Sequence record: NZ_CP069608.1
Origin: a plasmid
Strand: one strand, 5' to 3'
DNA: 64,000 nt
Below, one piece after another: positions 4,266 to 32,957 of this stretch (its first letter is position 1; each line of letters starts with the position of its first letter). Both the position numbers and the translations under genes were made by a program. The notes beneath the pieces are model-generated. The model was not told where the DNA came from. It searched no databases and worked only from the letters and a program-made list of their open reading frames with translations.

Positions 4266-4937
4266 TTATCTTTCCATTTCCTGTTCATCTTTTTTGTGTT
4301 TGACGGTACCTGTTCGCTTTTGAAAATATGGCTGATGCTCCTTTTCATGATGTGTTTTGAAAGTAAGAGGCTCTTTTTGAATTTGACCATGTATAACTCC
4401 CTGTTCATTTTTTTTCGTCACGGAATCTATTTGATGCTCAAGTTTTACCACTTCTTCTTTCGTCATCCATCCATTTTTAATGACTTTGACTTTGATTGAA
4501 TAATAGGTTTCCTCAGCCCTCACGCGCTCGAATACACTCTTTACATCGTCCGAAGATTCATTCTGCTGTTTTTCTCTATAAGCCTCATATCCTTCTTTCA
4601 ATTTTTTACGCACATTTTGAGGAAAAAGAGGCTCTTGTTGATCTATCTTCTTCTCAGATGATGGGTGTTTTTCTCGTTCATTGACAAGAGTTTCTTCCAT
4701 CGTTCCAATAAACTCAGCCGACGTTTCATGTACTTCTTTTAACAGGTTGGTTTTATCTTCAAAGGTTTTCCCCTTCGTCCAGTTCGACAGGTAATCGAGT
4801 GAGTACGAGCTCGTGTCGATTCCAAAGTAAGACGAAACGGTATAAGCTGTCATTTCAGCTTGAAACTCCTTTTCCGCCGCCGTATAGTTCATATGTGTTT
4901 CTTTTGTATGAAGCTTGGCGTGGGTCAACAAATCCAA
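4266..4937 (-). pseudogene. ardC: C-terminal fragment of an ArdC-like anti-restriction / zincin-like protein, separated from its N-terminal part by the RIT insertion.
   Basis: Begins ...DLLTHAKLH. Together with the end of ORF 8373-9077 (...LLHELT) this reconstitutes an HExxH-like LLHELTHAKLH motif across the insertion. Confidence 0.5.
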
Positions 4938-5042: not shown

Positions 5043-6092
5043 TTACTTTGCTAGAGCCTTTAATCCGCAGAATGAGCTTAGATCTTTACTATTAGATTTC
5101 CACTTTTTCGAGACCTTTGCATCATTCTCATCCTCCAAAGTTGCCATGGCTTTTAACTCTGCATCTGTTGTAATGTCGAGATAAATCATTGTAGTCTGAA
5201 CATTGGAATGACCGAGCAGAAAAGAAATCTGTACGATATTCATACCGTCTTCAAGCCAGTGGGATGCTTTAGCATGGCGAAATTGATGTGCATGGAGACT
5301 TAACGGTACATCACCACATATCTCATGTGCTGCTTTAGCATGTTTTTTTAACATCTTGGCAATAGCTGGTTGCGTGAGCTTCCCGTTTTTACCAGTGTTT
5401 CTAGAGTAAAACACATAGTCATCTGGGGTAGGCTTGTTACCATGAAACTCTTTTAAATAGCTTTTCACATGGGCTACGGCTTTCGGCAGAAGGTATAAAG
5501 TCCGTATTTTTCGACCTTTTCCAATGATAATTGCATATGGCTTTTGGTCATTTAAATGAAGTTGAGATATTTTCATATCCAATAGTTCATCCAATCGTGC
5601 TGCAGTTCCGTATAAAAAAACCATAAATGTGATATCTCTTTTTCCTGTTCTGGTCTGTGGATTAGGAACTGCCAGAAGCGCCTTTACTGCTTCACGACTC
5701 ATTCCCTGTACATTTTTCTTTGTCGTTTTCCGGGACTCGATTCTCGTAGCATCATTAGATAAGTATAGATATTTAATATCCCGGCTTCCAAGAAATTTTA
5801 AGAATACTCGTAACGAAGATAACCTAAGATTACAAGTTTCCGGACTACAGTTTCTGTTTTTCATCAGCCAAGTGAGCCATTCCTCAATCACAGGTTGTTC
5901 AAAACAGCCTGCTGAAAGATTCTCTGGGGATACAGATTTTACATCTGATAAAAATCCGATGTAGAGTGTTAGGGCAATATTATAGGACTTTAGGGTGTGC
6001 TGGCTTGTAGTTTTTTGTGTAGGAGCATAGTTGTCTAAAAAGGTATGGATGTATTGTGCCAATTCCCGTGCTTCAACATTAGCCTTCTTCAT
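5043..6092 (-). CDS. ritC: Tyrosine recombinase (third gene of the RIT trio).
   Basis: Catalytic region HAHQFRHAKASHWLEDGMNIVQISFLLGHSNVQTTMIYL carrying the R..H..R..Y signature. It overlaps the upstream recombinase gene. Confidence 0.8.
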   Translation of the reverse strand: MKKANVEARELAQYIHTFLDNYAPTQKTTSQHTLKSYNIALTLYIGFLSDVKSVSPENLSAGCFEQPVIEEWLTWLMKNRNCSPETCNLRLSSLRVFLKFLGSRDIKYLYLSNDATRIESRKTTKKNVQGMSREAVKALLAVPNPQTRTGKRDITFMVFLYGTAARLDELLDMKISQLHLNDQKPYAIIIGKGRKIRTLYLLPKAVAHVKSYLKEFHGNKPTPDDYVFYSRNTGKNGKLTQPAIAKMLKKHAKAAHEICGDVPLSLHAHQFRHAKASHWLEDGMNIVQISFLLGHSNVQTTMIYLDITTDAELKAMATLEDENDAKVSKKWKSNSKDLSSFCGLKALAK

Positions 6093-7050
6093 AGTCCACC
6101 TCCGGAATCAATTCATTAAACCCTGTTTCAGTTTGTTCCAAAAGGACTTCCGAGAGAGCTGGAACCAATGAGTAATAATACTTTACGGTGATATCGGCAG
6201 AAGTGTGTCCCATGCTTTTGCTAAGGTAAATGAGATTATCTTCAAATGACATCCCATGACCTACTAGCTTATTGATATTCTCAATAGCATAATTATGACG
6301 AAGTTCATAAGCCGTAGCGTATGTTGATTCAACTTGTTCCCACATAACCTTAAAATAATGTTGAACCCATGTACGACTTCTAAAACCAGTCGGTCCATTC
6401 GGGAAGAAATACATTCTTCCTGGATATAAATCTTCTATAACAAAATCGTATGTCTTCATCAGTACCAACATGCTGTCATGCATTACGACATAGTGCTGCT
6501 CATAACCTTTCGTGTTTACAATGCTGATAACACCTGTGTCAAGATTCACATTACACCGTCGAAGTTTTCTGGCTTCCGTTGTACGCATCCCCGTACTATA
6601 GAGAAGCCTAAAAAAAACAGGCAATGTATATTTGATGTTCAGGTGACTGGCAGTACGAAAGTTAAACGGCTTATAGCTGTCACAGGCCCTGAAGAAGAGC
6701 TGAAGCTCTTCTTTTGTGAACGGATGCGGAATATATAATCGCTTTTCAGCAGAGGGAATAACAGGTTCATTAGCATTCGTTAGACCCCTTTCCCTTAAAA
6801 ATCTGACAAGACTGACAATGGCATATATCCTAGAAATACAGCCATTGTTTGATTCTGACTCTCTTTGATTACACCAGGAATCTACCATGTCCTGAGTAAG
6901 AACTTTTTCTTCTGGAAAGTGCTGCAGGCAATGCTTATCAAACAAAAGGAGATTCATTCCATAAGAAGTATCATTCCATTTCATACAAGCTTTCCTAAAT
7001 CGTACAAAAGCTTCAAACTGTTCAGCTAGAGGAGATTTAAATTCGCTCAC
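6079..7050 (-). CDS. ritB: Tyrosine recombinase (second gene of the RIT trio).
   Basis: TAYELRHNYAIENI...GHTSADITVKYY integrase catalytic motifs. It overlaps both neighbouring genes. Confidence 0.8.
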   Translation of the reverse strand: MSEFKSPLAEQFEAFVRFRKACMKWNDTSYGMNLLLFDKHCLQHFPEEKVLTQDMVDSWCNQRESESNNGCISRIYAIVSLVRFLRERGLTNANEPVIPSAEKRLYIPHPFTKEELQLFFRACDSYKPFNFRTASHLNIKYTLPVFFRLLYSTGMRTTEARKLRRCNVNLDTGVISIVNTKGYEQHYVVMHDSMLVLMKTYDFVIEDLYPGRMYFFPNGPTGFRSRTWVQHYFKVMWEQVESTYATAYELRHNYAIENINKLVGHGMSFEDNLIYLSKSMGHTSADITVKYYYSLVPALSEVLLEQTETGFNELIPEVDYEEG

Positions 7051-8272
7051 TACAGAATACCCCCTCTCGCACTGGAAATGCTTCTATGCTTAGTGAACAT
7101 TCCTTCAGATGAATCATGTCAGCAGACAGATAAGCCTCAGTGGAGGCTGGGGAAGTGTGCCCCAAGATTCTGCTAATAACAGCTCTTGGTGCACCATTTT
7201 CAAGCATAGATGTTGCAAAGTTATGTCGGAACAGATGCCCACCTCTGCGATCGTTTGGATTCTGTCTGATTTCGGCATTTTTATAGATTTGATCTGCAAT
7301 AACGCCTATGGATCCTGGTTTTAGCTTTCCATAAGGGTAATTATAGGATAGAAAAATGTAAGGTTCATCAGATGTTTTCCTTTCCTGGGTAATGTAATCG
7401 TAAATAGCATTTCCTATTATAGCTGTCATAGGCAACTTCAATGGCACATCTGTTTTCTGCTGGTCAATGAATAGTTCATCCTTATCCCAGTCAATGTCAG
7501 AAAGTGTGAGATTGGAAATATCACAGCAACGAATTCCAGTAAAGTATAGTAAACAGCCAATTGCTCGATTTCGTTGACTTAAGGTATTATCGGCATTCTT
7601 TAAAGCACTTTTGACTTTTGTTCTTTCATGAGGCTCAAGATACTGGATATTTTTTCTATGTTTTCTGATTACCGGAATGCATAGAAGAATCCTCTGGCAT
7701 TCTTGACTCCATTCGATGGCACCTCTAAAAACTGCGATGATCTGCATCACATACGATGCGCTTTTAGTAGGGTAGCCAGAATCATCTGTAAGAACATGCA
7801 AGATGGCATCCTCTGTAATCTCTGTTAATGAGTTATATCCAGCTTTCTGGAGTGCAAGTAAAAATGAACTGGTATTCCAGCATTCATTACGGATAGTGGT
7901 TTCTTTTTTTAGTGCTTGATCTGTATTCGCATTGTAATAATCTATAAGGCTTTTAAATTCAGGATTCAGATAGTCATACGAAGATGGTTTTTGGAAATAA
8001 ATTGTTTTATCCTTTGCGCCAGGGAAAGCACCATAGCAATCAAATGAAGCAATTAAGTTTAGGATAGCCTTTTTCTTCGAAAAGTCCTTACCACTAATTG
8101 CTGCTTTCTTGTAATAATCCAAAATTTCATCATATGACTGCCATTGTTCGCTTTTAGACAGTATAAATTTCAGAACTTGCTTAACAACTTGCACATAGTT
8201 TTTGGAATATCCCGCAGCATACATGAAATCTACGAGCTGTGGATATGTGTTTTGCAAGTTTTCTACATTCAT
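7037..8272 (-). CDS. ritA: Tyrosine recombinase (first gene of the RIT trio).
   Basis: GHLFRHNFATSMLENGAPRAVISRILGHTSPASTEAYL catalytic region. Long N-terminal domain. Confidence 0.8.
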   Translation of the reverse strand: MNVENLQNTYPQLVDFMYAAGYSKNYVQVVKQVLKFILSKSEQWQSYDEILDYYKKAAISGKDFSKKKAILNLIASFDCYGAFPGAKDKTIYFQKPSSYDYLNPEFKSLIDYYNANTDQALKKETTIRNECWNTSSFLLALQKAGYNSLTEITEDAILHVLTDDSGYPTKSASYVMQIIAVFRGAIEWSQECQRILLCIPVIRKHRKNIQYLEPHERTKVKSALKNADNTLSQRNRAIGCLLYFTGIRCCDISNLTLSDIDWDKDELFIDQQKTDVPLKLPMTAIIGNAIYDYITQERKTSDEPYIFLSYNYPYGKLKPGSIGVIADQIYKNAEIRQNPNDRRGGHLFRHNFATSMLENGAPRAVISRILGHTSPASTEAYLSADMIHLKECSLSIEAFPVREGVFCSERI

Positions 8273-8372: not shown

Positions 8373-9077
8373 TTAAAAATAGTAGGGATAAGTCAACTCG
8401 TGTAACAGGGTTTTGACATTTTGTTTTTCAGAGTTTCGAGGATTGAGGGCTACTTCTTTTGTTAGAGTATAGCTCACACCCTTAGCACTCCCTAGTTCCT
8501 CTTTTGGTGCAATAATTGCGATGCCGTTCTTTTCTGCGATAGCTTCCATTCCTTTATATAACGCCTTGTAATCCTCCACACTTCCCTCTAACCAACGATT
8601 TGGAAAGACTTTAGGTAAATCACTCGATTTTACGTTCGTCTGGACCACATCAAAAACATGGCCGACTGAAAAGTACAGTCGGCCTTGAGACACTTCTTTT
8701 TTTCCATCTTGTATCAGCTTCTTTTCTTGAGGAGTCGCTTTATTAATCGACTTCCACTTTCCCTTTTCATCTTGAAACTTAGGAACGGTTTTGTTTGGGA
8801 CCAGAATTTTAATCCCTTTCTCTCCTTTATTGACAGAGAATCCTTTTTCTTTCCAGAAAGCAAAGGAGCCAACGGCTTGTGCTCCCATGAATTGGTGTTG
8901 AATTAGTTGAGTGTTTGATAAAGAATATTGATGGAACTTACCCATGAAAGAGAGATACTCTTTTAAATCTTCTGGTGAATGAAAATGCTGTTCCATACGC
9001 TTCTCCATGTCCTTGGTGAGTGATTCAATTTCTTTTCTCTTCTCTTCGGCTGATTTTTTCACATATCCTTTACTCAT
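8373..9077 (-). pseudogene. ardC: N-terminal part of the ArdC-like anti-restriction protein (ssDNA-binding domain), truncated by the RIT insertion.
   Basis: ArdC/DUF1738-like N-domain. The ORF ends ...LLHELTYPYYF, and the last residues are encoded by the RIT terminal repeat. Confidence 0.55.
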
Positions 9078-17604: not shown

Positions 17605-20223
17605 TTACTTCTCATCTAATTTCTTCTGTTTCTTAGACACAAGTTTACGTAAGTCTTGCCCCGTATTACGCCCAATTTGATACGAGCGCTTTGTCTTATG
17701 AAGCGTTGGTGAGCTTTCAATTCGGTTCTTGACGTTTCCTATTTTTCCTTTAACATTATCACGCACGACATGGGCGATATTCCGCGTTTCTGTCCGATGT
17801 TGATGTGGCATTGGAATATCGCTTGTGGAAGCAGGAACCGGATCTTGCTTGATGGTTTCTTTTACCTGACGAGGTTCTTGGGTAGTTGCCACTTGCCTTT
17901 GTGCTTGATCCATGTCTCTCGGCATCGTAATAGAAGGTTCATTTATTGATGAAGGAACCTTTGTACTCCCTATAGAAGAGCTGCTTTCACTCGGGCTTCC
18001 ACTATAACCGGAAGTTTGGATCTCCCCTTGAACAGGTGTACTTACACTTCCTATAGAAGAGCTGCTTTCACTCGGGCTTCCACTATAACCGGAAGTTTGG
18101 ATCTCCTCTTGAACAGGCGTACTTACACTTCCTATAGAAGAACTACTTTCACTTGGGCTTCCACTATAACCGGAAGTTTGGATCTCCTCTTGAACAGGCG
18201 TACTTACACTTCCTATAGAAGAACTACTTTCACTTGGGCTTCCACTATAACCGGAAGTTTGAATCTCCTCTTGAACAGGTGTGCTTACACTTCCTATAGA
18301 AGAACCGCCTTCACTTGGGCTACCACTATTTCCAGAAGCCTGCATTTCTTCGTGAAGAGAAGCCCCTCCATTTTCTACACTAGAAGATGTTCCTTCACTT
18401 GAGCTGTTGTCATCATAACCAGAAGCCTGCATTTCTTCATGAAGAGAAGCCCCTCCGTTTTCTACACTAGATGATGTTCCTTCACTTGAGCTGTTGTCAT
18501 CATAACCAGAAGCCTGCATTTCTTCATGAAGAGAAGCCCCTCCGTTTTCTACACTAGATGATGTTCCTTCACTTGAGCTGTTGTCATCATAACCAGAAGC
18601 CTGCATTTCCTCGTGAAGAGAAGCTCCTCCGTTTTCTACACTAGATGATGTTCCTTCACTTGAGCTGTTGTCATCATAACCAGAAGCCTGCATTTCCTCG
18701 TGAAGAGAAGCTCCTCCATTTCCTGCGATGGCTGTATTTCCTTGTTGCTCTCCTTTTCCTTGGGCGTAGTTAACATTCCCTTTTTGTCCACCTTCTTGTT
18801 GACCGGCTTCTTTGCCTGGTGCGGCTCCTTGCTTCTTACCCCCTCCCTGTTGTCCTTTAGAAGCATCGTTTCCTTTTCCATTTCCTCCTCCAACTCCTGC
18901 TTTTTTCATTTCTTCGTGTAGACTTGATTGTTGTCCATTATTCCCTTTACCTCCTACTAATCCTTTACTAAGTCCCCCAACACCTGCGGCAGCTTGAAGA
19001 GCACTGCTAGCTGCACCTTTTCCAAGACCTCCAATCCCCTTTGCAAGATCTGTTGCATTTTTGAACGTCCCTTTCGCACCATTCATGGTACTTTCCATTC
19101 CTTTCATCATCGCAAGACCTCCTGCGACTGCACCCCAGCCACTTCTGAGGCCAGCATCAATTCCGAAGAGACGCTCACACATGACCGGTCCATCTACAAC
19201 TGCAATACTAAAGGCAATCTGAAGAATAAGCGTTGTGACACCTTCTGTGTGTTCAGCTATATAAGTCATGCCTATCAGATAGACCTTCATCGAAATGAAA
19301 ATCATAATAATTACCAAGAACGTATTCAATATGTTTTGTAGAACAGTTTTTAACTTTTGTCCATCTCCTACATCCGCAGGAGCTACTAATTGAGCCAAAA
19401 TCGCATTAAACCCTAGCTCATAACATAACTTTGCTAGTTTAATAGATGTAAACAGCATCGTCATCCCTGTGACAAAAAGGGAAATTGCAATCGTCCAAAA
19501 GTTCCAGTGCCACCGATAATAAAGCTCTGGAAAGAAATCAAACCATCCATTTTCAAGCTCTACTAGGCCTTCCTTTCCATCAGGAGTAATAGCTGCTTTA
19601 TGGGTTAAAATTTCCCTCCCTTCTTTGCTCATCTCCTTATCTTCTCCTAATTTAAACTTATCATCTATTTTCTCCGTAATGTCAATCATATCAATACGGC
19701 TTTGTGGCACTTTATTGGATTCTTTAAGTTTAGGTGTTTTCCACTTATTTACATCAAATTGAGCAACATCCGTAGTATTTTGCTTAATAATCTTTTCACT
19801 AACTGTACTTTCACCCTTTAAATCAACGGCATCTATGGCCTCATCTGTAAATTTATCAGCCTTTACCATTCCTGCGTTGAGCAATAACAAAACAGCCATC
19901 GATAGAAAGATGTTAATCATAATTTGTTCTCGATTGACTTTTTTATGGATGATTAACATATAGCCGATATACAGGAAGGAAAATGCCCACAAGATATAGA
20001 GAAACGGCTGGATCTCTTTAATAAAATCTTGAATCGCAGGTGAATTGAAAAAGAGCTTAATGCCCAATACATTGTTTGTAATGCCTTCTAAACTATCCAC
20101 AAGGAAGGATAGTACTTGTATAATGCCCCACCCTATTTTTCTCAATAAATAAGAAGCAATATTTCCTTTATCAAGGTAATCAGCAAATTCATGTAGCTTT
20201 TTCAGAATCTCTTCATCTTTCAT
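17605..20223 (-). CDS. VirB6/TcpH/ConG-like polytopic T4SS membrane protein with a C-terminal serine-rich tandem-repeat domain.
   Basis: Multiple N-terminal TM helices. The C-terminal half is Gly/Ser-rich with 29-aa and 27-aa repeats. Confidence 0.6.
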   Translation of the reverse strand: MKDEEILKKLHEFADYLDKGNIASYLLRKIGWGIIQVLSFLVDSLEGITNNVLGIKLFFNSPAIQDFIKEIQPFLYILWAFSFLYIGYMLIIHKKVNREQIMINIFLSMAVLLLLNAGMVKADKFTDEAIDAVDLKGESTVSEKIIKQNTTDVAQFDVNKWKTPKLKESNKVPQSRIDMIDITEKIDDKFKLGEDKEMSKEGREILTHKAAITPDGKEGLVELENGWFDFFPELYYRWHWNFWTIAISLFVTGMTMLFTSIKLAKLCYELGFNAILAQLVAPADVGDGQKLKTVLQNILNTFLVIIMIFISMKVYLIGMTYIAEHTEGVTTLILQIAFSIAVVDGPVMCERLFGIDAGLRSGWGAVAGGLAMMKGMESTMNGAKGTFKNATDLAKGIGGLGKGAASSALQAAAGVGGLSKGLVGGKGNNGQQSSLHEEMKKAGVGGGNGKGNDASKGQQGGGKKQGAAPGKEAGQQEGGQKGNVNYAQGKGEQQGNTAIAGNGGASLHEEMQASGYDDNSSSEGTSSSVENGGASLHEEMQASGYDDNSSSEGTSSSVENGGASLHEEMQASGYDDNSSSEGTSSSVENGGASLHEEMQASGYDDNSSSEGTSSSVENGGASLHEEMQASGNSGSPSEGGSSIGSVSTPVQEEIQTSGYSGSPSESSSSIGSVSTPVQEEIQTSGYSGSPSESSSSIGSVSTPVQEEIQTSGYSGSPSESSSSIGSVSTPVQGEIQTSGYSGSPSESSSSIGSTKVPSSINEPSITMPRDMDQAQRQVATTQEPRQVKETIKQDPVPASTSDIPMPHQHRTETRNIAHVVRDNVKGKIGNVKNRIESSPTLHKTKRSYQIGRNTGQDLRKLVSKKQKKLDEK
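17950..18330. repeat. About 4.7 tandem copies of an 81-bp coding repeat (SGSPSESSSSIGSVSTPVQEEIQTSGY).
   Basis: Near-identical 81-bp units are visible in the nucleotide sequence. Confidence 0.8.
18330..18740. repeat. About 4.7 tandem copies of an 87-bp coding repeat (GGASLHEEMQASGYDDNSSSEGTSSSVEN).
   Basis: Near-identical 87-bp units are visible in the nucleotide sequence. Confidence 0.8.
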
Positions 20224-20478: not shown

Positions 20479-21390
20479 TTAGTTTTTGGCATGTTCTTTA
20501 TCTTGCTGACATTGTATTAAGATCTTATTAATCGTTTCTTCAATGAGCTGATAATCTTGTTCATCCAGCTGATCTGCATAAGCTGATCCCATAAACGCGT
20601 CGTAAAAAGCTCCCATCGACTGTTGTTTAAATACTTCAGATGGGATAGATAAGGAAGGAGCGACTGTGGTTTGCATATATGTCCATACTCCTTCATCCAA
20701 TGAAAAGAATGCTTCAACCGTTTGACTTTTCCAGTTCTCACTATTCACATCGGCAAAAGGTTGATCCTTCTCTTCTACAGATGATTCTTCTTGTAACTCC
20801 TCTTCTTTTACTGGTTCTGGCTCTTGTTTGGCTTGTTTTTGGAAGGAGAAGAAGTTTTCAATCACTAATTCTCTTGGATTCACTTCCTTATGCAATGATT
20901 CAATATCAATGTCTAACAGCGAACGATCCGTGTTAAAATCGTCTCCAAGATATTCCCATCGGTATTTAAGAGCCGTTTTTCCTGTGTTATGAATGGGATG
21001 AGCCTTAATACGGCGGCGTGATTGGTCTTGACGTTTGACGACACGCACCACGACGCTTTCTCCTTCTTTCAGTTCCATCAGCTCGTTGGGTGTTAATAAT
21101 GGCTTAGCATCCACACCCTCCGTCTTATTTTTATCAGTTGATAAGGTCTTTCCACTTCGAGACATAGAATTGATGGTCCCGTCTCCTAACTTCTTTGAAA
21201 TTTCTTGTGCTGTTTCATAGTTATTCGTTAAAATATAAATGGTGTTTCCGCAGTTCCCTTCAATCGTAGCTGCGTCTTCACCATATTTATTTTTGAGCTG
21301 CGGATAGGCTTGAATCACTAAGTTGAAGCGTATATTTCGTCCTAAACAAACCGTGATAATGTTTGCCATTCCTTCAATCGCCGGCATATT
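20479..21390 (-). CDS. virD4: Type IV coupling protein (VirD4/TraG family), exon 2.
   Basis: Begins NMPAIEGMAN...QAYPQLKNKYGEDAATIEGNCGNTIYI, the conserved T4CP C-terminal region. It is in frame with exon 1 after intron removal. Confidence 0.75.
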   Translation of the reverse strand, partial: NMPAIEGMANIITVCLGRNIRFNLVIQAYPQLKNKYGEDAATIEGNCGNTIYILTNNYETAQEISKKLGDGTINSMSRSGKTLSTDKNKTEGVDAKPLLTPNELMELKEGESVVVRVVKRQDQSRRRIKAHPIHNTGKTALKYRWEYLGDDFNTDRSLLDIDIESLHKEVNPRELVIENFFSFQKQAKQEPEPVKEEELQEESSVEEKDQPFADVNSENWKSQTVEAFFSLDEGVWTYMQTTVAPSLSIPSEVFKQQSMGAFYDAFMGSAYADQLDEQDYQLIEETINKILIQCQQDKEHAKN

Positions 21391-23920
21391 GTAGGGTAAG
21401 AACCCGGCGCCTTAAGACCTCTCGGTCTTAGGTTTCCGAGAACTCCCCCCCGAACCGTACGTACCCCTCTCAAGGTATACGGCTCTCCGTCTCTTCAGTC
21501 TAGCTTCCCGTTATGCAGGTCACGATGACACTTTCGACAAAGTATCATTGTTTTACGGTTCCTTGCTATCATCTGTCTTTCCCATTTCTTTTTCCCTTTA
21601 AGGTTCTTTAACTTTCGAACATGATGAACTTCCATTGAACCTTCTTCAGCCTTACACCATTCACATTGATTAGCCATCAACCTTTGAATAAGGGATGTTC
21701 GGGATTGGTATGATACTTCCGAAGGAAGTTTTTCTATATCCTTTTTTGTTATAGGAGCTTTATTCCTACGAAATCCCTTATCATAAAGCACTTCTGTTTT
21801 CTTACCGGACTTTGTCATATAACTGACTTGGAATATTCCGTTCACCATAAATTTTCGTTTAGCTTTACTTAAGGTCGTACGGTACTTATTTGCTAAGGTT
21901 TTATACATAGAATATTCAAGGAGATACTTATAACTATTTAAGTGGCACACATTCACTGCCAGTTGATAATATTGATAGGTTCCACGTATTTGGGCATTAT
22001 AGTTCCTTAGAATCTCAAGAGGAACCAATTTAATTAATTCCGGACGATGCATTGGTTTCCATTTTCCTGTCTTTTGGTTGACCTTTATTGCCCCTTTTTT
22101 AAATAAGCGACTATAAACAAGATCAGTAGGCATATATAGTTCGCACTTTAACGAAAATGCTCTTGTTTTTATTCCATCACTTCGTCGTTTAGAGTGAAAA
22201 TCTCGCCCAACTTTAACGTCATAACCTAAAAATCGAGCCTTATGCCTCGTATTTGTTATAAGTGTTTTCTCCTCGGATAACGTTAGCTTAAGTTCAGATT
22301 TCAAGAAATTAGCGATGTCTTTCTTTGCTCTACACGCATCTTCCTTACTCCCAATGACTCCAATCAGAAAGTCATCTGCGTATCTCACATATTGAATTCG
22401 TTTGTAGTTTTCATCCATTGGATACCGTTGGGGAGTGCGTTCTCTTTCAGCTAATAACTGGCGTATCCTATTACTCAACTCTTTTTCCCGTACTTCATCT
22501 TTTTCTTTAGCTTCCCTTAGTTCTTTCTTAGCCCCACTTATCTGATGCTGAATTTTAGAATAGGCTGGATTTGTCCTTTTAGCTTTTCCTATATCAAAAG
22601 TTGACTTATATCTACTCATAAAGTTGTCTAATTCATTCAGATAGATATTTGCTAATAGAGGGCTAAGAATACCACCTTGTGGTGTACCACTAAACGTCTT
22701 ATGGAACTTCCAATCTTCCAAGTAACCAGCTCTAAGAAACTTCCATATAAGCGAAATAAATTGTTCATCATCAATCCTCTTCCTTAGGATATTGATAAGA
22801 ATATGATGATTAATATTGTCAAAAAAGCCTTCAATATCACCTTCGATGAACCATCTGCTCCCCGTAAATGTGCCTTTAACCTGAATCAGAGCTGTATGGC
22901 AGCTCTTTTCAGGGCGAAAGCCATGAGAGAACTTACTAAAAGTTGGTTCATAGATGGATTCTAATAGGTTTTTGATGACCTCTTGAACTAATTTATCTTC
23001 TACTGAAGGTATGCCTAATGGACGCTTTTTTCCATTTTTCTTTGGAATATAAACTCTTCTTACTGGTTGTGGCTGATAAGAAAAATCTCGTAATTTATCG
23101 ACTAACCCTGAGATTCTTTTTGTAGACATTCCGTCAATGGTCTTTCCATCTGTTCCAGCAGTCATGTTTCCTTCGCTGGCGTATATGTTTTGATAGGCAT
23201 CAAGGAAAAATAATGGATTGTACAGATTTCGATATAACTTCTTGTATTTATATCCTGCTTTGTTACTGTAAGATGCTAGATTTTCTAATACGATTTTTGG
23301 GCTTCGCAAGAGCCTCACGCCCCTTCCCAATTTAATATTAGTCGAAAAGACTGTTCTCCTTCGCCTTGTACGAGGCTTTCCCTCGCTCTGACTACTACGA
23401 GAACTCCGTTACCATATTGGATTTTCATGAGCCACATACCTTGCTTTTTACACTTGGTATCATCCTCAATAGCCTCCTTACGAGGCGCTCCAGGTTAGGT
23501 AATCCCCATTTAGTACATATAGAGACTAGACTCGTTATGATGTCGGATGCCACTTTCGTCCGTTACTTGTTATCCAAGTTAGTCAGTCTTTGGTCTGCCA
23601 TACGTATCACGTATGTTCAATGGAAACTTCGGAAACATTTCCATTCTTTGACTGCGAAGCGTTTCAATGACCCTTCACTTCGGGCGACGATACTCCACTT
23701 TAGACTATGGTTGAAGCAGTTTAGCCTTCATCCTTATTCACAACATTTTTTTACCTTGCCCCTCAGTCGTACCTAGGTCATTTTGGTAACTTAGGGCTTT
23801 CCTTGCATGCTCTGGTCCCCTCCGGGTTTCCCCATGTAGGTAAGCAAGGTGGTAACTGGGTTAAGCGCAGACTCCCATCTCTTGTCTAAGGAGATTCTCT
23901 ATATGCCCGTATGGGCGCAC
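21391..23920 (-). mobile_element. Group II intron (ORF-containing) inserted in the coupling-protein gene.
   Basis: 5-prime GTGCGCCCATACGGGC at 23920 on the minus strand. Domain V GAGCCGTATACCTTGAGAGGGGTACGTACGGTTCGGG. Domain VI ends ...CCCTAC at 21391. Removing it joins LLDEFG to NMPAIEG in frame. Confidence 0.8.
21495..23330 (-). CDS. Group II intron-encoded reverse transcriptase/maturase with a C-terminal HNH endonuclease.
   Basis: RT domains with YADD, an X/maturase region, and C-terminal CEWCKAEEGSMEVHHVRKLKNLKGK...CRKCH. Confidence 0.9.
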   Translation of the reverse strand: MGRGVRLLRSPKIVLENLASYSNKAGYKYKKLYRNLYNPLFFLDAYQNIYASEGNMTAGTDGKTIDGMSTKRISGLVDKLRDFSYQPQPVRRVYIPKKNGKKRPLGIPSVEDKLVQEVIKNLLESIYEPTFSKFSHGFRPEKSCHTALIQVKGTFTGSRWFIEGDIEGFFDNINHHILINILRKRIDDEQFISLIWKFLRAGYLEDWKFHKTFSGTPQGGILSPLLANIYLNELDNFMSRYKSTFDIGKAKRTNPAYSKIQHQISGAKKELREAKEKDEVREKELSNRIRQLLAERERTPQRYPMDENYKRIQYVRYADDFLIGVIGSKEDACRAKKDIANFLKSELKLTLSEEKTLITNTRHKARFLGYDVKVGRDFHSKRRSDGIKTRAFSLKCELYMPTDLVYSRLFKKGAIKVNQKTGKWKPMHRPELIKLVPLEILRNYNAQIRGTYQYYQLAVNVCHLNSYKYLLEYSMYKTLANKYRTTLSKAKRKFMVNGIFQVSYMTKSGKKTEVLYDKGFRRNKAPITKKDIEKLPSEVSYQSRTSLIQRLMANQCEWCKAEEGSMEVHHVRKLKNLKGKKKWERQMIARNRKTMILCRKCHRDLHNGKLD

Positions 23921-25648
23921 TCCAAATTCATCCAGTAAAAACACCACTTCACGGTGACACTTATTTCCTTTAGCCAGCGACGCATTTTTGGCTAATACAT
24001 AATACAGTTGACGCACAAAAATAGAGGCAATCACATGATTACTAGAATCATAGTCAGGTGTAACCATAAAGATCGCAATTGGCTTTGTAAAATACGTCAC
24101 TTCGCTTACGTGGATGTCTGGATGTTGTTTCTCTACGCGAAAAGAAGTGGTTCCTTTTTTTCGGTCTATATTATAGACCGATACAACCGTTTCATTTTTA
24201 TGATCGGTGACAATCTGATCGTTCACTTTTTCAGCAATCCGAATTTCATTTTCTTTTGGCTTAATCTCACTTGTAAAATTAAGTTCAAATAAACCTTTGG
24301 CATCCGTTTTAATACTTTCCACTTTCCCATCGGGAAAGGTCACCTCTAAACGTGTAAGAGGCATCGCTTTTCCTTTCAGGGTCTTTCCAAAGCCTACGCG
24401 CTTTAGATCCACACTATTTTTAGCCGTCATTTTTGCAATTTCGTCAAACGTGAAAATAGACAATCCATTCATCGTTTGGGTAAAGATCCCGCCCCGTGTT
24501 GTGCCTTTCGAGAAGTTTGATGTCGCATATTGCATTTTCGCGACACTATTCGTTGGTAAATCATCGAAATACATATCCAGTGCATTTTGTGTATTTCCTT
24601 TTTTATCAATCACGACTTCTTTTGATCCTAACTCTGACAACATATTAGCTACCGTGTACATCGTAATCTTTTCTTCTGTTTTTTCATTAATACACTTATC
24701 TGTTACAGCTAGAATCATGGCATTACAAAGACTCATCGCACATTGTTGCCAAAAGGGATCTTTGGCATTAGGGTTGTAGTAAAGCGTATACGATAAGGTA
24801 TTACACAATGCTTGAGCTGTTGAGTAATCGTCGTCTTTATACGTTTCTTTTATCATCTCCAATAGGTTATAGCTCATGGATTCTAATGGATTTAATAAAT
24901 TTAGAACTTCAATATGATATCCTCTCTTTTCAAGCGTTTCCTTCGAAGCTGCAAGCAATTCTGCCTTGGGATCGTTGAGGATCAACGAAGGCTGTTTTTC
25001 AGCCCTTGAATATACGTCAATCGCTGGAATGACAAAAGTTTCTCCTTTTCCTGATCGTGTAATCCCTATAATGAGATTATTTACAGGTGTATCATCAATT
25101 AATAAATGATTACGAGTCGTAAATAGTTGATGTGCTTTAAATAATTTATCCATCCCCTTTAACTTTTGATAGTCGCACCAATTGTGAATGAGATTACGCG
25201 TTTTGATACGGGATATTGGTACACCACCTCCGCCTTGATAATATTCGGTTTTTTCGGGTACTTTCCGATATTGTTTTTGAAGCTCTCGACGTGTTGTAAA
25301 GCGTCCAGATCCTTTTTGGTTTTGGTTTAAGTCTTTGAAGTTGGATCGTACATCATACGTCAATTTGGCCGTCAGTAAGCAGGAAACAAGTGCCATCATG
25401 CAGTAGATGGCTGCATACTGATGGGTGTTCATCTGCCAGAAAAACGAGAGAGACAAATGAAATGGCTGCGGATCAAACACATCACTAAACGTAGTTTGAA
25501 TGAGACTTCGCAGCGTATTGAATAAAAAGTTTAAAATCAGAAAAATAAGTACAAAAAAACAAGCACTTAAAGGAATAAGCACTTGTTTCTCAGCTATGAT
25601 ATATTTGATAGATTTAGTAGGTTGCATGCTGTACCTCCTGTTGCACAT
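23921..25648 (-). CDS. virD4: Type IV coupling protein (VirD4/TraG family), exon 1.
   Basis: N-terminal TM helices and Walker A GITRSGKGETFVIP. The ORF ends ...VVFLLDEFG immediately before the intron GTGCG. Confidence 0.75.
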
Positions 25649-26047
25649 GAGTGGACAGTGGAATCACATACGATGAGCTAGGTGTAAACAAAAAATGCGA
25701 TTGATCTCTAGCCTCATACTCTTGTTGAAGGTAATGAAAAGCTGTCTTGATGTCCCAACTGACCTCTTTCATATCCTCTTCAGTCACGATATACGCTTGA
25801 TTTCGGATAAACTCCTCTCTCTCTTGATGAGTAAGTACTGATAATTCTAGAGGCGGTAACTTAGGCTTTATACATACTCTAAACTTATATGCGTGTTTGA
25901 GAAAATCATCATTAATCGTGATTGAATCAGCATTTTTGAAAATAACTACCATGTGATCTTTCAGAAGAATAATACTGTTTACACTATTCACAATCCGTTG
26001 GGCATGAAGAGGAGTCGTATGGAACGTTCCCAACTCTAATTGTGCCG
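25614..26047 (-). CDS. Conjugation-operon protein of unknown function, exon 2 (spliced product about 171 aa).
   Basis: Frame continuity with exon 1 (28783-28864) after intron removal gives ...EDLFL|AAQLELGTFHTTPLHAQRIV.... Confidence 0.45.
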
Positions 26048-28782
26048 ATAGGTAAGAGTTTGATGTAATCTCCGTCTTTTCCCCCGGTTAACACTGTACG
26101 TGCGACTTTCACCGCATACAGCGTCCCATCATTATTTGTTAACATTCACATAAATTAATTTAGCCTCTTTCTCGAAAGAGAAGTTAAGCAGGTTCACTTA
26201 GTAATTCCTTAAGTTTTATAACGGAATTTCCAGCTGTCTTACGAAATTTGTTCAGCTTCTTGAGCGATTGCTGGTTTAGGTTGAGTAAAGCAATATACTT
26301 TAAGATTGTTTCTTCTCTAGTGGCATGAATTAGTTTATGAACATCTTTTGTTACCCAAATGAGATTTTTGTACTCATTGGTTCCTCCTCTTCTAAGGGGG
26401 ATAATATGATGACATTCCATTGAGCCAATTTCTAGAGATTGCTTGGATATACCACATAACCCAGCTTGACCGACATATAACGATATCCTATTGTCATTGT
26501 ATAAAACAGTGCTGTTAGTAATAGGGTTTTTCATTATATATGCGAGAACAGAAAGATTTACCTTCTTGAGATTTTCGTGGACTTTCGCTCTACCTATCAC
26601 GGTATAGTTACAAATATCCTGTGAAAACATCATTGGTTTTGCGAATTTTACATACGAGATAGGTAATACAGGTACATAGTTTTTAGCGTATAGCTTCCCC
26701 TTGTACTCTTTGTAGTACTTATTGTATGTTCCATATCTTTTAACCTTTTGTCTCTTTTGGTGTTCATTAGCTTTGATAATTTGTGTCCAAGATCTTAACC
26801 TGTTGTACATTGCATTCCTGACTGAAAAGGCAATTTTGCTGAAATCTTCGGCAACATTGGTAGCAATTTTATAGTAATTATGCTGACCAATGATGATGGA
26901 GTTCAGTTTGTTAATAGCTGCTACGGTTTTAAGTCTCTGTACATTCTTTATTCCATCCATTAGTGTCTCACGAATGTTCTTTGCCGCCTTGGGACTGATA
27001 TTAGATTCGATAACATATCCCTTTTTGGTTTTGCCTTTCCTTCTGACCTTGAAGGTAAACCCAAGAAAATTTGAGTGTTTTTGTTTAAGATTTATGATTT
27101 GGGATTTTTCAGGATTAGCTTTTAAACCAAGTCTTTCACCAAGCCACTTTACAGTAGCAATTGAGACTTTTTTTGCTGTGTGGTGATTTGGACAAAAGAT
27201 TTTCAGGTCGTCTGCAAACCTAACAATGTAACATTCTTTAAGATTCGTCTGGTCTTTCAATGCTTTAAACCTGTTAGATCCGAGAGTGCCTTTATAGGTA
27301 TGTTTCGTAGGGAAGTTCTCCCATTGTGAACTAATCCACCAATCTAATTCATTAAGGACTATATTAGACAGCAAAGGAGACAAAATTCCACCTTGCGGTG
27401 TACCTTTATTAGGGACTCCTTCACCTTCGATTTCAGCTTTAATGAGCTTTGAAATGATGCGGATCAGATTTTTATCCCTAATGCCCATTGTCCAGATTTG
27501 TTTTAACAGTTTAGAGTGGTTAACATTGTCAAAAAATCCTTCAATGTCTATATCTACTACGTGATGGAGTCCTTGCATATTCACAAGGAAATGTACTTTT
27601 GCCATAGCATGATGCTGATTTCGGTTCGGTCTGAATCCATAACTATATGGGTAAAATTTGGCCTCACATATAGGTTCCATTACTTGAAGAATGCATTGTT
27701 GTAAAAGTCTATCTTCAATTGATGGAATTCCCAAGGGCCTTTTCTTCCCACTTCTGTCGTTTTTGGGAATCAATTTCCTTCTCACCATATGTGGCGTAAA
27801 GTTTTCAATTCGATTTTGGACGTATTTTATCAGTTCCGATTCCGTAAACTTTTCCAAATCCGTTATAGTATGTCCATTCACACCTGGGGTTTTAGAGCCT
27901 TTTCTCGATTTAATGTTTCGAAATGCAAGCTTTATGTTTTCTTCAGCAGTAATAATTGGAACTAGATTTTTAAATACTCTGTCCCTCTTACTTCCCGCGT
28001 ACAAATTATCGTAGGTTTGTTGCATATCATAATACTCATTGAACCTAAGTTTCTTTCGCTTATTCTTTTTGATAGAGTTCACTGGTCGGTTAATCTTCCT
28101 TCCTTTGGAATTTCGCCTCTTTTAGTCATACTCGAACCCAGCAAATAAATTAATTTTTAATAGTTAACAAATAATGACTAGTGGCTATCCCTCCACGTTT
28201 ATTAGACGTTTCATTGGTACCGTGCCACCACCTTCACCAGTGCTAAACAAGTTATATTTAACAAGGTTAAACTTTCCTTGTACTGTTTCACAACGGATAA
28301 TCGCTCCACATCACTGGCTTACCCAGTTCCCATAGTTCTATCCTTACATATTTCCTTAGGTGCTTTCTATAAGCCTACAAGCTCCAATAACTCCAATTAA
28401 GTTATAGGGATTTTCATATCTTAGAATCTTACTTACCCCCGGCTTGCCCCATCATCGATGGTAAATGCATTTCTACATTTTTCTCTTTTAGACCCGTACA
28501 TTCGAAAGTTCGTCAGTTCTTAAGAACATTCTCACCATAGAAATTTTATGGACTCCCGATCTATCATCTACACTATCTGCCTCCAGATAGCTTTCCTCAA
28601 CCAAATGTTAGGGTAGACTTCAACCGACTTCACCGAGCTTCGAACAATTTCCCAATTATCTGAGAAACTGCACGTCGGAATATTAGAGGGACCCTTCTGG
28701 ACGTTACTCCATCATTTGATCTCTCGAACTAAGAGTTTCCCTAATTAGGGAGCCAACCTTTTCAGTTAGCAACTGGTCGCAC
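26048..28782 (-). mobile_element. Group II intron (ORF-containing, distinct lineage) interrupting the 171-aa gene.
   Basis: 5-prime GTGCGACCAGTTGC at 28782. Domain V GACGCTGTATGCGGTGAAAGTCGCACGTACAGTGTT. Ends ...CTTACCTAT at 26048. Confidence 0.75.
26184..28082 (-). CDS. Group II intron-encoded reverse transcriptase/maturase with HNH endonuclease (second lineage).
   Basis: RT motifs including FADD, and C-terminal CHHIIPLRRGGTNEYKNLIWVTKDVHKLIH. Confidence 0.9.
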   Translation of the reverse strand: MNSIKKNKRKKLRFNEYYDMQQTYDNLYAGSKRDRVFKNLVPIITAEENIKLAFRNIKSRKGSKTPGVNGHTITDLEKFTESELIKYVQNRIENFTPHMVRRKLIPKNDRSGKKRPLGIPSIEDRLLQQCILQVMEPICEAKFYPYSYGFRPNRNQHHAMAKVHFLVNMQGLHHVVDIDIEGFFDNVNHSKLLKQIWTMGIRDKNLIRIISKLIKAEIEGEGVPNKGTPQGGILSPLLSNIVLNELDWWISSQWENFPTKHTYKGTLGSNRFKALKDQTNLKECYIVRFADDLKIFCPNHHTAKKVSIATVKWLGERLGLKANPEKSQIINLKQKHSNFLGFTFKVRRKGKTKKGYVIESNISPKAAKNIRETLMDGIKNVQRLKTVAAINKLNSIIIGQHNYYKIATNVAEDFSKIAFSVRNAMYNRLRSWTQIIKANEHQKRQKVKRYGTYNKYYKEYKGKLYAKNYVPVLPISYVKFAKPMMFSQDICNYTVIGRAKVHENLKKVNLSVLAYIMKNPITNSTVLYNDNRISLYVGQAGLCGISKQSLEIGSMECHHIIPLRRGGTNEYKNLIWVTKDVHKLIHATREETILKYIALLNLNQQSLKKLNKFRKTAGNSVIKLKELLSEPA

Positions 28783-30437: not shown

Positions 30438-32957
30438 ATAGGGTAGACACCCAACGCCTTTCCATATTATTATGGTAGGTTTTCAAATGTCCCCCTCCAA
30501 ACCGTACGTACACCTCTCAGCGTATACGGCTTTCCACTTACTCCTAATCTAATCTCCCACTGTGAAGTTTTTTATGACAGGGAATACACATAGCCAGCGT
30601 TTTTCGTTTTCTAGCTATCATGTGTTTTTCCCATTTAGCTTTACCCTTCAGGTTTTTTAATTTCCTAACGTGGTGCATTTCTAAAGGAACGTTTTCTGTC
30701 CCACACCACTCACATTTTTTTGCTCGGAGTCTATCTGCTAGACTTGTACTAGCTCCAAATATTTTCACTGACTCTTCAATGTTATCCACTTTATAGTGTG
30801 TATTAGGTCTATCTTGCTTCCTGAAGCTTTTTTCGTGGAACAACATTACCTTTTCGCCTTTTTTAGTTTTATATTTAACGCCAATTTTGCCTTCAAATGA
30901 ATATTTTTTGAATGCTTTTTGTTTAGAGGTTCTATATTTACCAGCTAGTGTTTTGAGAAAACTTTGCTCCATAATCCAGTGAAATTTATTTAAAACACTT
31001 ACATTTTTAGCTAGTTTATAATAATTGTACAATCCTCTGATTTCAGCGTTAAATATAGATATAATCTCTAGGTCATCAAGATTTCTCATATTCGACCTAC
31101 TCTTACCCTGCCATTCGCCATTCATTGTTTTTAAATTTAGTGCTCCCAAGTTTTTGAGCTTATTAACCCACACTTCTTGTGGTACATAAAGAACTATATG
31201 ACCTTTCTTAAACGTTCTATAGCCGGTTTTGACATAAATCGTCTTTGCATTTTTTTCAGTCGCAATGTTGTAACCGAGAAATGTAGCGAATTTGTCATGG
31301 TGAGTAATAAGAGTTTTTTCTTGGGATAGCTCAAGTTTTAGCTTTTCTTTTAGAAAGTTTGTAATATCTGCTTTAATATTTTCAGCCTCTTCTTTACTGC
31401 CAATTACGCTAATAATGAAGTCATCTGCATACCTGACATATTGGATTCTTCTGAAGGTTTTATCCATTGGGTCCGTTGCCTTAAGTTTATCCATCATATC
31501 TCTATCTTCTTTAATATCGTAAAGTCTCTTGGTTATTTCCTCTTTATTCATCTTATGTCTATTATTCTCCAGGTCTCTTACTTTGGCTGACTTCACACGT
31601 GTTAGGTCAGAATATTCAGGGTTGGCTTTTCTTTTCTTACCTCTGTCAAACTTAGATTTGTATTCTTCCATGTACTTATCAAGTTCGTTAAGGTATATAT
31701 TGGAGAGAATAGGACTGATGATTCCACCTTGCGGTGCACCACTATAGGTTTTATGGAATTTCCAATCTTCCAGATATCCTGCCTTTAGGAATTTATAAAT
31801 TAATCCAATAAATTTTTCATCATCGATATGCTTTCGTAAGATATTAATGAGAATATGATGGTCAATGTTGTCAAAGAACCCTTTTATATCTCCTTCAATA
31901 AACCATTTGGCTGAACTGAATTTATTTTTAATTTGTATTAAAGCAGTGTGGCAACTTTTCCCCCTTCTAAAGCCGTGTGATCTATCAGAGAATTTACTCT
32001 CATAAATTGCTTCAAGCATTGACTTTACAATTGCTTGCACAAGTTTATCCTCCATAGAAGGTATACCTAATGGGCGTTTACCACCTTTAGCTTTCGGTCT
32101 ATAGACTCTTTTAACTGGCATTGGCTTATAAGTGTGATTTTTAAGGCTTTCAATCAGTGAATTTATTTTTTCCAAGCTCATTCCATCGATTGTTTTACCG
32201 TCAACTCCACTAGTCATATTACCTTCGTTAGGATGCATTTTATTATATACATCAAGGTAAAAATCTATATTGTACAAGTTACGATATAATCTTTGGAATT
32301 TATAGTTAGGATTTCCTGCGTGTTTGATTAGATTGTCTAATACTATCGCTGGACTTCTCATAGTGTCTCTCACACCTTTCCGCAATTTGTATTAGTACCA
32401 AGTAAGCTGCTCCCCTTCGCCATGTAGTAGGCTTTCCCTACCTCGGACTACTACGGGAACTCTGTTGCCATATCGAATTTTCATGAGCCACATACCTCGC
32501 TTTTTACACTTGGTATCATCCTCAATAGCCTAATATATAGGCGCTTCAACTTAGGCAATCCCCATTTAGTACAATTAAGTATGGCTTGATATAGTGTCGG
32601 ATGTGACTTTCAGCCTTTACTTCCTTATTGGTATGAGTAGATAGGATTCACTGATAAAACACATGACCGGCTTATTTTATCCACTATCTAAGTGACGTTT
32701 CAATCATCTTTCGTCACTGGAGACGCTATTCCCTCTCGGCTTATCATTCAAGCAGTATAGCTTTCATCCTCGTCTATATCCTTTTGTCTTGCCTTTCGTC
32801 TTCACTTTTGATGATTAAGTGGATTAAGGCTTTATCACCATGCTGCGGTCCCCAACCTTGTTTCCAAGATTAAGTAAGGTGTTGACAACAAGCTTATTGT
32901 GAATTTCAGCTTGCAACTTTGCCAGAGTTGAATACTTAATTGCCCTTATGGGCGCAC
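30438..32957 (-). mobile_element. Group II intron (ORF-containing), paralogue of the 21391-23920 intron.
   Basis: 5-prime GTGCGCCCATAAGGGC at 32957. Domain V GAAAGCCGTATACGCTGAGAGGTGTACGTACGGTTTGG. Ends ...CTACCCTAT at 30438. Confidence 0.8.
30544..32385 (-). CDS. Group II intron reverse transcriptase/maturase/HNH protein.
   Basis: Close paralogue of ORF 21495-23330, with the same motif order, YADD, and CEWCGTENVPLEMHHVRKLKNLKGK. Confidence 0.9.
   Translation of the reverse strand: MRKGVRDTMRSPAIVLDNLIKHAGNPNYKFQRLYRNLYNIDFYLDVYNKMHPNEGNMTSGVDGKTIDGMSLEKINSLIESLKNHTYKPMPVKRVYRPKAKGGKRPLGIPSMEDKLVQAIVKSMLEAIYESKFSDRSHGFRRGKSCHTALIQIKNKFSSAKWFIEGDIKGFFDNIDHHILINILRKHIDDEKFIGLIYKFLKAGYLEDWKFHKTYSGAPQGGIISPILSNIYLNELDKYMEEYKSKFDRGKKRKANPEYSDLTRVKSAKVRDLENNRHKMNKEEITKRLYDIKEDRDMMDKLKATDPMDKTFRRIQYVRYADDFIISVIGSKEEAENIKADITNFLKEKLKLELSQEKTLITHHDKFATFLGYNIATEKNAKTIYVKTGYRTFKKGHIVLYVPQEVWVNKLKNLGALNLKTMNGEWQGKSRSNMRNLDDLEIISIFNAEIRGLYNYYKLAKNVSVLNKFHWIMEQSFLKTLAGKYRTSKQKAFKKYSFEGKIGVKYKTKKGEKVMLFHEKSFRKQDRPNTHYKVDNIEESVKIFGASTSLADRLRAKKCEWCGTENVPLEMHHVRKLKNLKGKAKWEKHMIARKRKTLAMCIPCHKKLHSGRLD

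Follow-up and report, generated by a model that had tools for sequence, protein, structure and literature searches.

That group II introns interrupt conjugation genes is textbook knowledge, and the standard example is Ll.LtrB in the relaxase gene of pRS01. We analysed a 64,000-nucleotide (nt) stretch of plasmid record NZ_CP069608.1 (hereafter the window), in which all transfer-region features discussed here lie on the minus strand, and found a group II intron in a different conjugation gene, that of a VirD4-like type IV coupling protein. Very probably this is an intact, recently mobile intron of the Ll.LtrB/LtrA type, inserted in phase 0 after the Walker B motif of the single VirD4-like gene of a pLS20-like transfer operon on a Priestia megaterium plasmid.

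Ll.LtrB, from the ltrB relaxase gene of the Lactococcus lactis pRS01/sex factor, resembles the window intron in size (~2.5 kb) and in the architecture of its protein, the two being colinear over 582 aligned residues of LtrA at 46% identity. It also occupies an essential conjugation gene, so that transfer is expected to need splicing. The window intron differs in having a coupling protein rather than a relaxase as its host gene, a Priestia/Bacillus host and another target sequence. For Ll.LtrB, experiments have demonstrated that it splices, that it homes and that it affects conjugation; for the window intron these properties are predicted. As cited in PMC1196294, Belhocine et al. found that conjugation spreads Ll.LtrB.

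Other spliced introns in conjugation genes have been reported (PMC1196294, PMC9673590). In pAW63 of Bacillus thuringiensis, B.th.I2 interrupts a VirD4 homologue and B.th.I1 a hydrolase gene (PMC1196294; review PMC9673590). B.th.I2 is thus, like the window intron, a group II intron in a VirD4-like gene of a Gram-positive conjugative plasmid, with a second intron in the same transfer region. Unlike the window intron, which has a full reverse transcriptase (RT)-maturase-HNH protein, B.th.I2 lacks an open reading frame (ORF), is 935 bp long and lies ~223 codons into its gene. The pAW63 coupling protein belongs to the same CD1115 family, whose genes were found in 1445 plasmid records, and is uninterrupted at the Walker B site used in the window. 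In Enterococcus faecium CP071273.1 (5248-7995), an intron in a CD1115-family gene falls in the same Walker B codons and its removal restores ILDEFGNMPP in frame. The E. faecium intron is of a different, class-B-like lineage (Rfam group-II-D1D4-5; 632-amino-acid (aa) protein with a classic HNH domain), and its site is 4 nt further downstream (GGGAATA/TGCC), in phase 1 as against phase 0. This case suggests that introns target the codons of Walker B repeatedly. Two introns have been described from B. megaterium, B.me.I1 of class B and B.me.I2 of CL1B (PMC3552965); the window intron is probably neither B.me.I1 (IepA) nor B.me.I2, its LtrA-like protein setting it apart by published class. No paper describing the window intron was found in the literature searched. 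The arrangement therefore has published precedents, and public P. megaterium plasmid sequences already include this intron at this position, though mis-annotated.

The interrupted gene and its intron are laid out as follows.

23921..25627, minus strand: exon 1 of the VirD4-like type IV coupling protein gene (ORF list, tblastn)
21391..23920, minus strand: complete group II intron, 2530 nt (Rfam match to domains V and VI (D5/D6), empty-site alignment, insertion relative to NZ_CP058268.1)
21495..23309, minus strand: ORF of the intron-encoded protein, within domain IV; 604 aa when counted from the TTG used by RefSeq in relatives
20479..21390, minus strand: exon 2 of the coupling protein gene, from NMPAIEG to the stop, with most of TraG-D_C and an acidic C-terminal tail (ORF list, domain search, tblastn)

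The segment 21391-23920 is a complete group II intron whose ends are fixed to the base, and the agreement of the evidence is far beyond chance. Direct reading of the minus strand gives GATGAATTTGGA as the end of exon 1 (23921) and GTGCGCCCATAC as the start of the intron (from 23920); the intron ends CTTACCCTAC at 21391 and exon 2 opens AATATGCCGGCG at 21390. Both intron ends match the consensus GUGYG / AY, with GUGCG at 23920-23916 and CCCUAC finishing at 21391. In a whole-window Rfam scan at gathering thresholds, RF00029 (group II D5-D6; gathering score 40) scored 59.7 bits (E=3.3e-09) at minus-strand positions 21487..21391. An earlier note on this DNA had read the segment as a group II intron with a canonical domain V and an RT-maturase-HNH protein, and had proposed a covariance model as a check on its ends. 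The RF00029 match stops exactly at 21391, the base that note named as the 3' end, and the identification is borne out by this match, the domain structure and the intron protein.

The empty sites gave the same boundaries. Two intron-less P. megaterium alleles, in NZ_CP058268.1 and NZ_CP071474.1, aligned without gaps across the joined exons (120 nt), and both plasmids matched the window region in two pieces with the insert skipped. Whole-window comparison placed the insertion between NZ_CP058268.1 positions 9442 and 9443. Because the flanking bases differ at both ends (A/G at the 5' end, C/A at the 3' end), the placement is unambiguous. The final codons of exon 1, GTG GTG TTT TTA CTG GAT GAA TTT GGA, encode VVFLLDEFG, and the first of exon 2, AAT ATG CCG GCG ATT GAA, encode NMPAIE in a frame open to 20479. 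The exons are 1728 nt (counted from the first ATG) and 912 nt long, both multiples of three, which makes the junction phase 0. Joined, they read HREVVFLLDEFG followed by NMPAIEGMANII, or VVFLLDEFG-NMPAIEG in frame, and the expected ligated-exon junction is GATGAATTTGGA-AATATGCCG. Both boundaries of the earlier note, and its in-frame joining of LLDEFG to NMPAIEGMAN, therefore stand. In both intron-less plasmids the gene is uninterrupted, encodes 872 aa and bears the annotation 'VirD4-like conjugal transfer protein, CD1115 family'.

The spliced product is also 872 aa. Its start at 25627 is the start codon of the intron-less alleles (MQPTKS...), with another in-frame ATG at 25648, and residues 1-572 of the intron-less allele's protein map to 25627..23912 at 98% (tblastn). 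The spliced protein scored 525 bits against NCBIfam NF045973 (conju_CD1115; cutoff 250) and matched Pfam T4SS-DNA_transf, TraG-D_C and TrwB_AAD_bind, the first two of which span the junction. Exon 1 contains the Walker A motif GITRSGKGET and finishes with the Walker B motif LLDEFG; alignment to the VirD4 homologue Cag5 (8dol) likewise gave GITRSGKGETFVIP as Walker A and VVFLLDEFGNMP as Walker B. The N-terminus, where transmembrane segments would be expected, reads as hydrophobic in the sequence. On every feature by which membership was judged, the host gene is a VirD4-like coupling protein of the CD1115 family. At the protein level the exons match an intron-less allele with 97.8% identity. The insertion lies directly after the DEF of Walker B and parts that motif from most of TraG-D_C; an unspliced message would encode 576 residues plus 19 intron-encoded residues, then a stop.

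Since exon 2 opens N-M, an ATG-initiated ORF of 302 aa exists (ATG at 21387), which RefSeq annotates separately in relatives, and one might suppose that the 576-aa piece with its 19-aa tail and the 302-aa piece assemble as a naturally split coupling protein for which splicing is unneeded. We consider this extremely improbable. The bases upstream of the ATG at 21387, GGGTTCTTACCCTACAAT, contain no Shine-Dalgarno-like sequence; the residues NM are also present in uninterrupted alleles, so the ATG is no adaptation; the cut falls inside TraG-D_C, directly after Walker B; and there are carriers whose exon 2 starts otherwise (NIGQ in the Bacillus cereus allele) and has no ATG there.

Nine plasmid records, of which eight are P. 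megaterium and one is Bacillus sp. H8-1, matched this region of the window along its whole length with 88-94.5% identity and carried the intron contiguously; at least two near-identical alleles were without it. Among the public records with the intron are those of plasmids from the type strain, ATCC 14581. In P. megaterium, B. mycoides and B. cereus alike, the intron was found in coupling-protein genes at this codon boundary, after LLDEF(G/A), and the identity of the intron was out of step with that of its host protein.

B. mycoides p97 (L004): intron 94.5% nt identity, host protein 41% aa identity
pNCT2_2 (L007): intron 97.3% nt identity, host protein 80.5% aa identity
B. cereus pMLY1.1 (L006): intron 73% nt identity, host protein 29.5% aa identity

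This decoupling, taken with the presence/absence polymorphism, shows horizontal, site-specific insertion (retrohoming). The intron has thus moved recently by such homing, and it is probably still mobile. Of six further alleles with the intron, five had both exons open and full-length, at protein identities down to ~30%.

The 5' motif of the intron, GTGCGCCCATAMGGGCA, is common to many unrelated intron families across phyla, and a scan of genome contigs gave at least 120 loci with it; no listed locus was at an LDEF site. LtrB-like introns with 65-72% nt identity were found in other genes of B. thuringiensis pMC189 (L131), B. mycoides NZ_CP136374.1 (L132) and Clostridium sp. NZ_CP046517.1 (L133). 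Two of these three hosts are conjugation genes, namely a TraG-type coupling protein (intron after ...DFDFDVH) and a glucosaminidase-domain gene beside tcpH; in pMC189 the interrupted gene is found downstream of an LtrC-like one.

The protein encoded in the intron contains RVT_1 with YADD, Intron_maturas2 (maturase/X) and a C-terminal AI2M-like_HNH domain with its cysteines and histidines present, as the earlier note had proposed in outline. Its open frame extends to a TTG at 23330, which would give 611 aa. It scored 301 bits against TIGR04416 'group II intron reverse transcriptase/maturase' (cutoff 300). Residues 6-598 aligned to residues 6-594 of LtrA (5g2x chain C) with E=8.6e-154 and 46% identity, and LtrA was the best solved-structure match, ~110 orders of magnitude in E-value ahead of class C and other RTs. 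On protein sequence, and subject to a formal tree, the intron is assigned to the LtrA-like (mitochondrial-like, ML; IIA-type) lineage.

We analysed the RNA structure in an alignment of ten introns (the window intron, copies from five other plasmids, L131, L132, L133, and intron 3 of the window, described below); compensatory changes were scored in these relatives on the very alignment from which the consensus structure was predicted. The predicted fold has six domains with co-variation support, domain IV holding the ORF.

23505..23920, minus strand: domain I, intron nt 1-416, with a closing helix of nt 6-25 and nt 396-416 (RNAalifold consensus)
23409..23502, minus strand: domain II (consensus fold)
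23405-23408, minus strand: linker between domains II and III (J2/3), CGGA, with a gamma candidate G at 23407 (alignment)
23353..23404, minus strand: domain III (consensus fold)
21452..21485, minus strand: domain V, 14-bp helix with AGC triad at 21482-21484, AC bulge at 21461-21462 and GAGA tetraloop (RF00029, consensus fold)
21393..21449, minus strand: domain VI, extended stem with a GNRA-capped distal hairpin (consensus fold)

In the 5' 600 nt, the RNAalifold consensus of domains I to III in the ten introns had 136 pairs, 77 with compensatory changes. The G at 23407 changes to A only in intron 3 of the window, whose last base is U instead of C, a single co-variation event. In domain V, 100% of helix cells were paired in eight distinct sequences. 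Domains V and VI together had 34 consensus pairs, with 99.3% of cells paired and 11 pairs changed on both sides; none of 500 shuffles reached the observed values, and shifting the partner by 1-3 columns halved the pairing. A single bulged A in domain VI at 21397 (in CUUACCCUAC), 7 nt from the 3' splice site and kept in 10/10 aligned introns, is the predicted branch point. The GUGCGCCCA start at the 5' end and the extended domain VI are features that we take to be shared with Ll.LtrB.

The intron sequences expected to recognize the exons (exon-binding sites, EBS; intron-binding sites in the exon, IBS), whose pairing the earlier note had put forward as a check, were found: EBS1, EBS2 and delta all pair with the flanking exons.

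23921..23926, minus strand: IBS1 UUUGGA, exon -6..-1 (6/6 pairs with EBS1, one G.U)
23928..23932, minus strand: IBS2 GAUGA, exon -12..-8 (5/5 pairs with EBS2, one G.U)
23686..23690, minus strand: EBS2 UCGUC, intron nt 231-235, just 5' of the nt 239-266 hairpin (co-variation)
23628..23634, minus strand: delta U287 and EBS1 UCCGAA, nt 288-293 (minimum free energy (MFE) fold, co-variation)

Delta and EBS1 lie in the loop of the hairpin AAUGGAAA[UGUUUCCGAAG]UUUCCAUU (nt 276-302, MFE fold), and U287 pairs with the +1 A of exon 2 (21390, delta'). Presumably Ll.LtrB is alike in having EBS2 just 5' of a conserved hairpin and EBS1 in a hairpin loop near nt 290. Within the coupling-protein clade, the L007 exon UUCGGA turns the EBS1/IBS1 G.U into G-C, and a change of the EBS to CCAAA in another copy (L008) turns the G.U into A-U; in the B. 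cereus allele L006, IBS2 is GACGA and forms five Watson-Crick pairs with EBS2. The homologous positions of EBS1, EBS2 and delta also match four unrelated exon sets in the related introns. The EBS1 positions (~nt 287-289) read AUAUAU against exon GUAUAU in L131 and GUGGAC against exon GUCCAC in L132. The EBS2-homologous positions pair with unrelated exons in L131, L132, L133 and intron 3 of the window (UCGAA against UUCGA, twice; UAUGG against CCAUA; CGUCU against AGAUG). The delta/+1 pairs across the introns are U:A, G:C and G.U. Of the two intron-less alleles, that of NZ_CP071474.1 has IBS1 and IBS2 identical to those of the window, and that of NZ_CP058268.1 reads AUAUGGA, which is mismatched at -5. 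Two other EBS2 candidates were rejected, one being UCAUU within the hairpin loop of nt 239-266 and the other CAUCCG at nt 372: both were invariant where the relatives' exons differ and paired poorly with the L004-L007 exons.

By analogy with the intron family, and starting from the anatomy, boundaries, frame, pairings and presence/absence polymorphism observed directly, the intron would be expected to splice as follows. It would be transcribed as part of the transfer-operon pre-mRNA, and the LtrA-like protein translated from domain IV would serve as maturase. The EBS2/IBS2, EBS1/IBS1 and delta/delta' pairings would position the splice sites. The bulged A at 21397 would then attack the 5' splice site, and exon ligation would restore LLDEFG-NMPAIEG and with it the full 872-aa ATPase. 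If splicing failed, translation would stop 19 codons into the intron, giving a product that lacks most of TraG-D_C, and transfer should therefore need splicing. The excised lariat-protein particle could reverse-splice into intron-less coupling-protein alleles met after conjugation, by means of these pairings, now between RNA and DNA, and of HNH cleavage and reverse transcription.

No second coupling-protein gene was found in the window. Compared with an intron-less reference plasmid, the window shows a pLS20-like transfer operon that is otherwise colinear and keeps full-length genes for VirB4, the lytic transglycosylase/C40 hydrolase, the MobP2 relaxase and the p028-family protein. Because Walker B is cut off from most of TraG-D_C, the window has no second coupling-protein gene and the other transfer genes are intact, it is reasonable to expect, as the earlier note did, that conjugation would depend on splicing.

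Several observations weigh against this account. A permissive Rfam run over the intron returned only D5/D6, and since the models of domains I to IV had no match, the class assignment rests on the protein and on comparison by hand. The EBS1/IBS1 match taken alone is near chance, with ~3.3 such 6-mers expected per shuffled domain I, and close copies of the intron are mismatched at exon -1 (L003 G/G, L008 G/A); the EBS/IBS assignment is convincing because it draws on position and co-variation, not complementarity alone. The carrier L007 (NZ_CP032530.1) has a broken, frameshifted exon 2, and some carriers have therefore decayed. Finally, MOB-suite types several of these plasmids as non-mobilizable, which may be a limit of the typing.

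The frameshifted exon 2 of L007, the non-mobilizable calls and the exon -1 mismatches in some copies could also be taken to mean that the intron is a splicing-dead relic in a coupling-protein pseudogene, on a plasmid that no longer self-conjugates or that uses a coupling protein in trans; the three introns and the recombinase-trio insertion in the window's transfer region (below) are readable as decay in the same sense. Such a relic is distinctly unlikely in the window, where the intron has kept its ORF, domains V and VI, branch A and EBS/IBS pairings intact, both exons are open at 97.8% protein identity to an intron-less allele, and all other transfer genes are full-length. Among the other carriers, five of six keep both exons open in spite of divergence to ~30% protein identity. 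We thus favour an intact intron whose removal would restore the coupling protein.

The transfer operon contains three introns in three consecutive genes, which encode a pilin-like protein, a 169-aa protein and the coupling protein, and no PLSDB record with all three was found. Intron 2, a group II intron of 2741 nt at 26042-28782 on the minus strand (Rfam group-II-D1D4-5, 164 bits, plus D5/D6), is of a different, class-B-like class, with a 632-aa protein at 26184-28082 whose HNH domain is of the classic type. The gene split by intron 2 is the 169-aa hypothetical one (...HEDLFL/ELELG) directly upstream of, and overlapping, the coupling-protein gene; the insertion is precise, between NZ_CP058268.1 positions 7321 and 7322, and no close copy was found among the Priestia plasmids of PLSDB. 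Intron 3, a group II intron of 2520 nt at 30438-32957 on the minus strand, is a paralogue of the intron at 21391-23920 and encodes an LtrA-like protein of 613 aa (30544-32385). The gene that it interrupts is for a small membrane protein of 101 aa (...GAADGMT/GLIESG) with weak, sub-threshold similarity to TrbC/VirB2 pilin. It is tempting to see in Walker B a recurrent homing hotspot, reached independently by at least two lineages (LtrB-like in Priestia and the Bacillus cereus group, class-B-like in Enterococcus faecium) and in the three introns a gate on conjugation, with transfer needing several splicings, but we hold this idea to be speculative and rather doubtful.

Two further differences were seen in the region. 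A 3.47-kb insertion relative to the reference plasmid (4923-8394, minus strand) carries three tandem tyrosine recombinases (7037-8272, 6079-7050 and 5043-6092), resembles a 'recombinase in trio' element and splits an ArdC-N-like anti-restriction gene (8373-9077 and 4266-4937). The pLS20_p028-family transmembrane protein (17605-20223, minus strand) contains long, near-perfect tandem peptide repeats, GGASLHEEMQASGYDDNSSSEGTSSSVEN four times and then SGSPSESSSSIGSVSTPVQEEIQTSGY four times; it is 81% identical to the reference allele, and the repeat number varies (blastn).

RefSeq annotates exon 2 of the relatives as a protein of its own (302 aa, 'TraG/TraD/VirD4 family protein') and frequently leaves out exon 1, so that in public records the intron-bearing gene is labelled as a stand-alone reverse transcriptase plus a 302-aa fragment. 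Both this annotation and the typing of several related plasmids as non-mobilizable by MOB-suite are probably consequences of the introns. Plasmid typing tools may accordingly under-call the conjugative ability of Priestia plasmids with a split coupling-protein gene, although the practical value of the finding is modest. In this locus nature provides a clean case of an LtrB-type intron that homes into a highly conserved ATPase motif, and does so in coupling-protein genes with identities down to 30%, and the intron-less, apparently permissive allele of NZ_CP071474.1 is an available homing target. If splicing limits the supply of coupling protein, the transfer rate of these plasmids would be tied to intron activity, as for Ll.LtrB and its relaxase, and the three-intron operon would be a convenient system in which to test that link.

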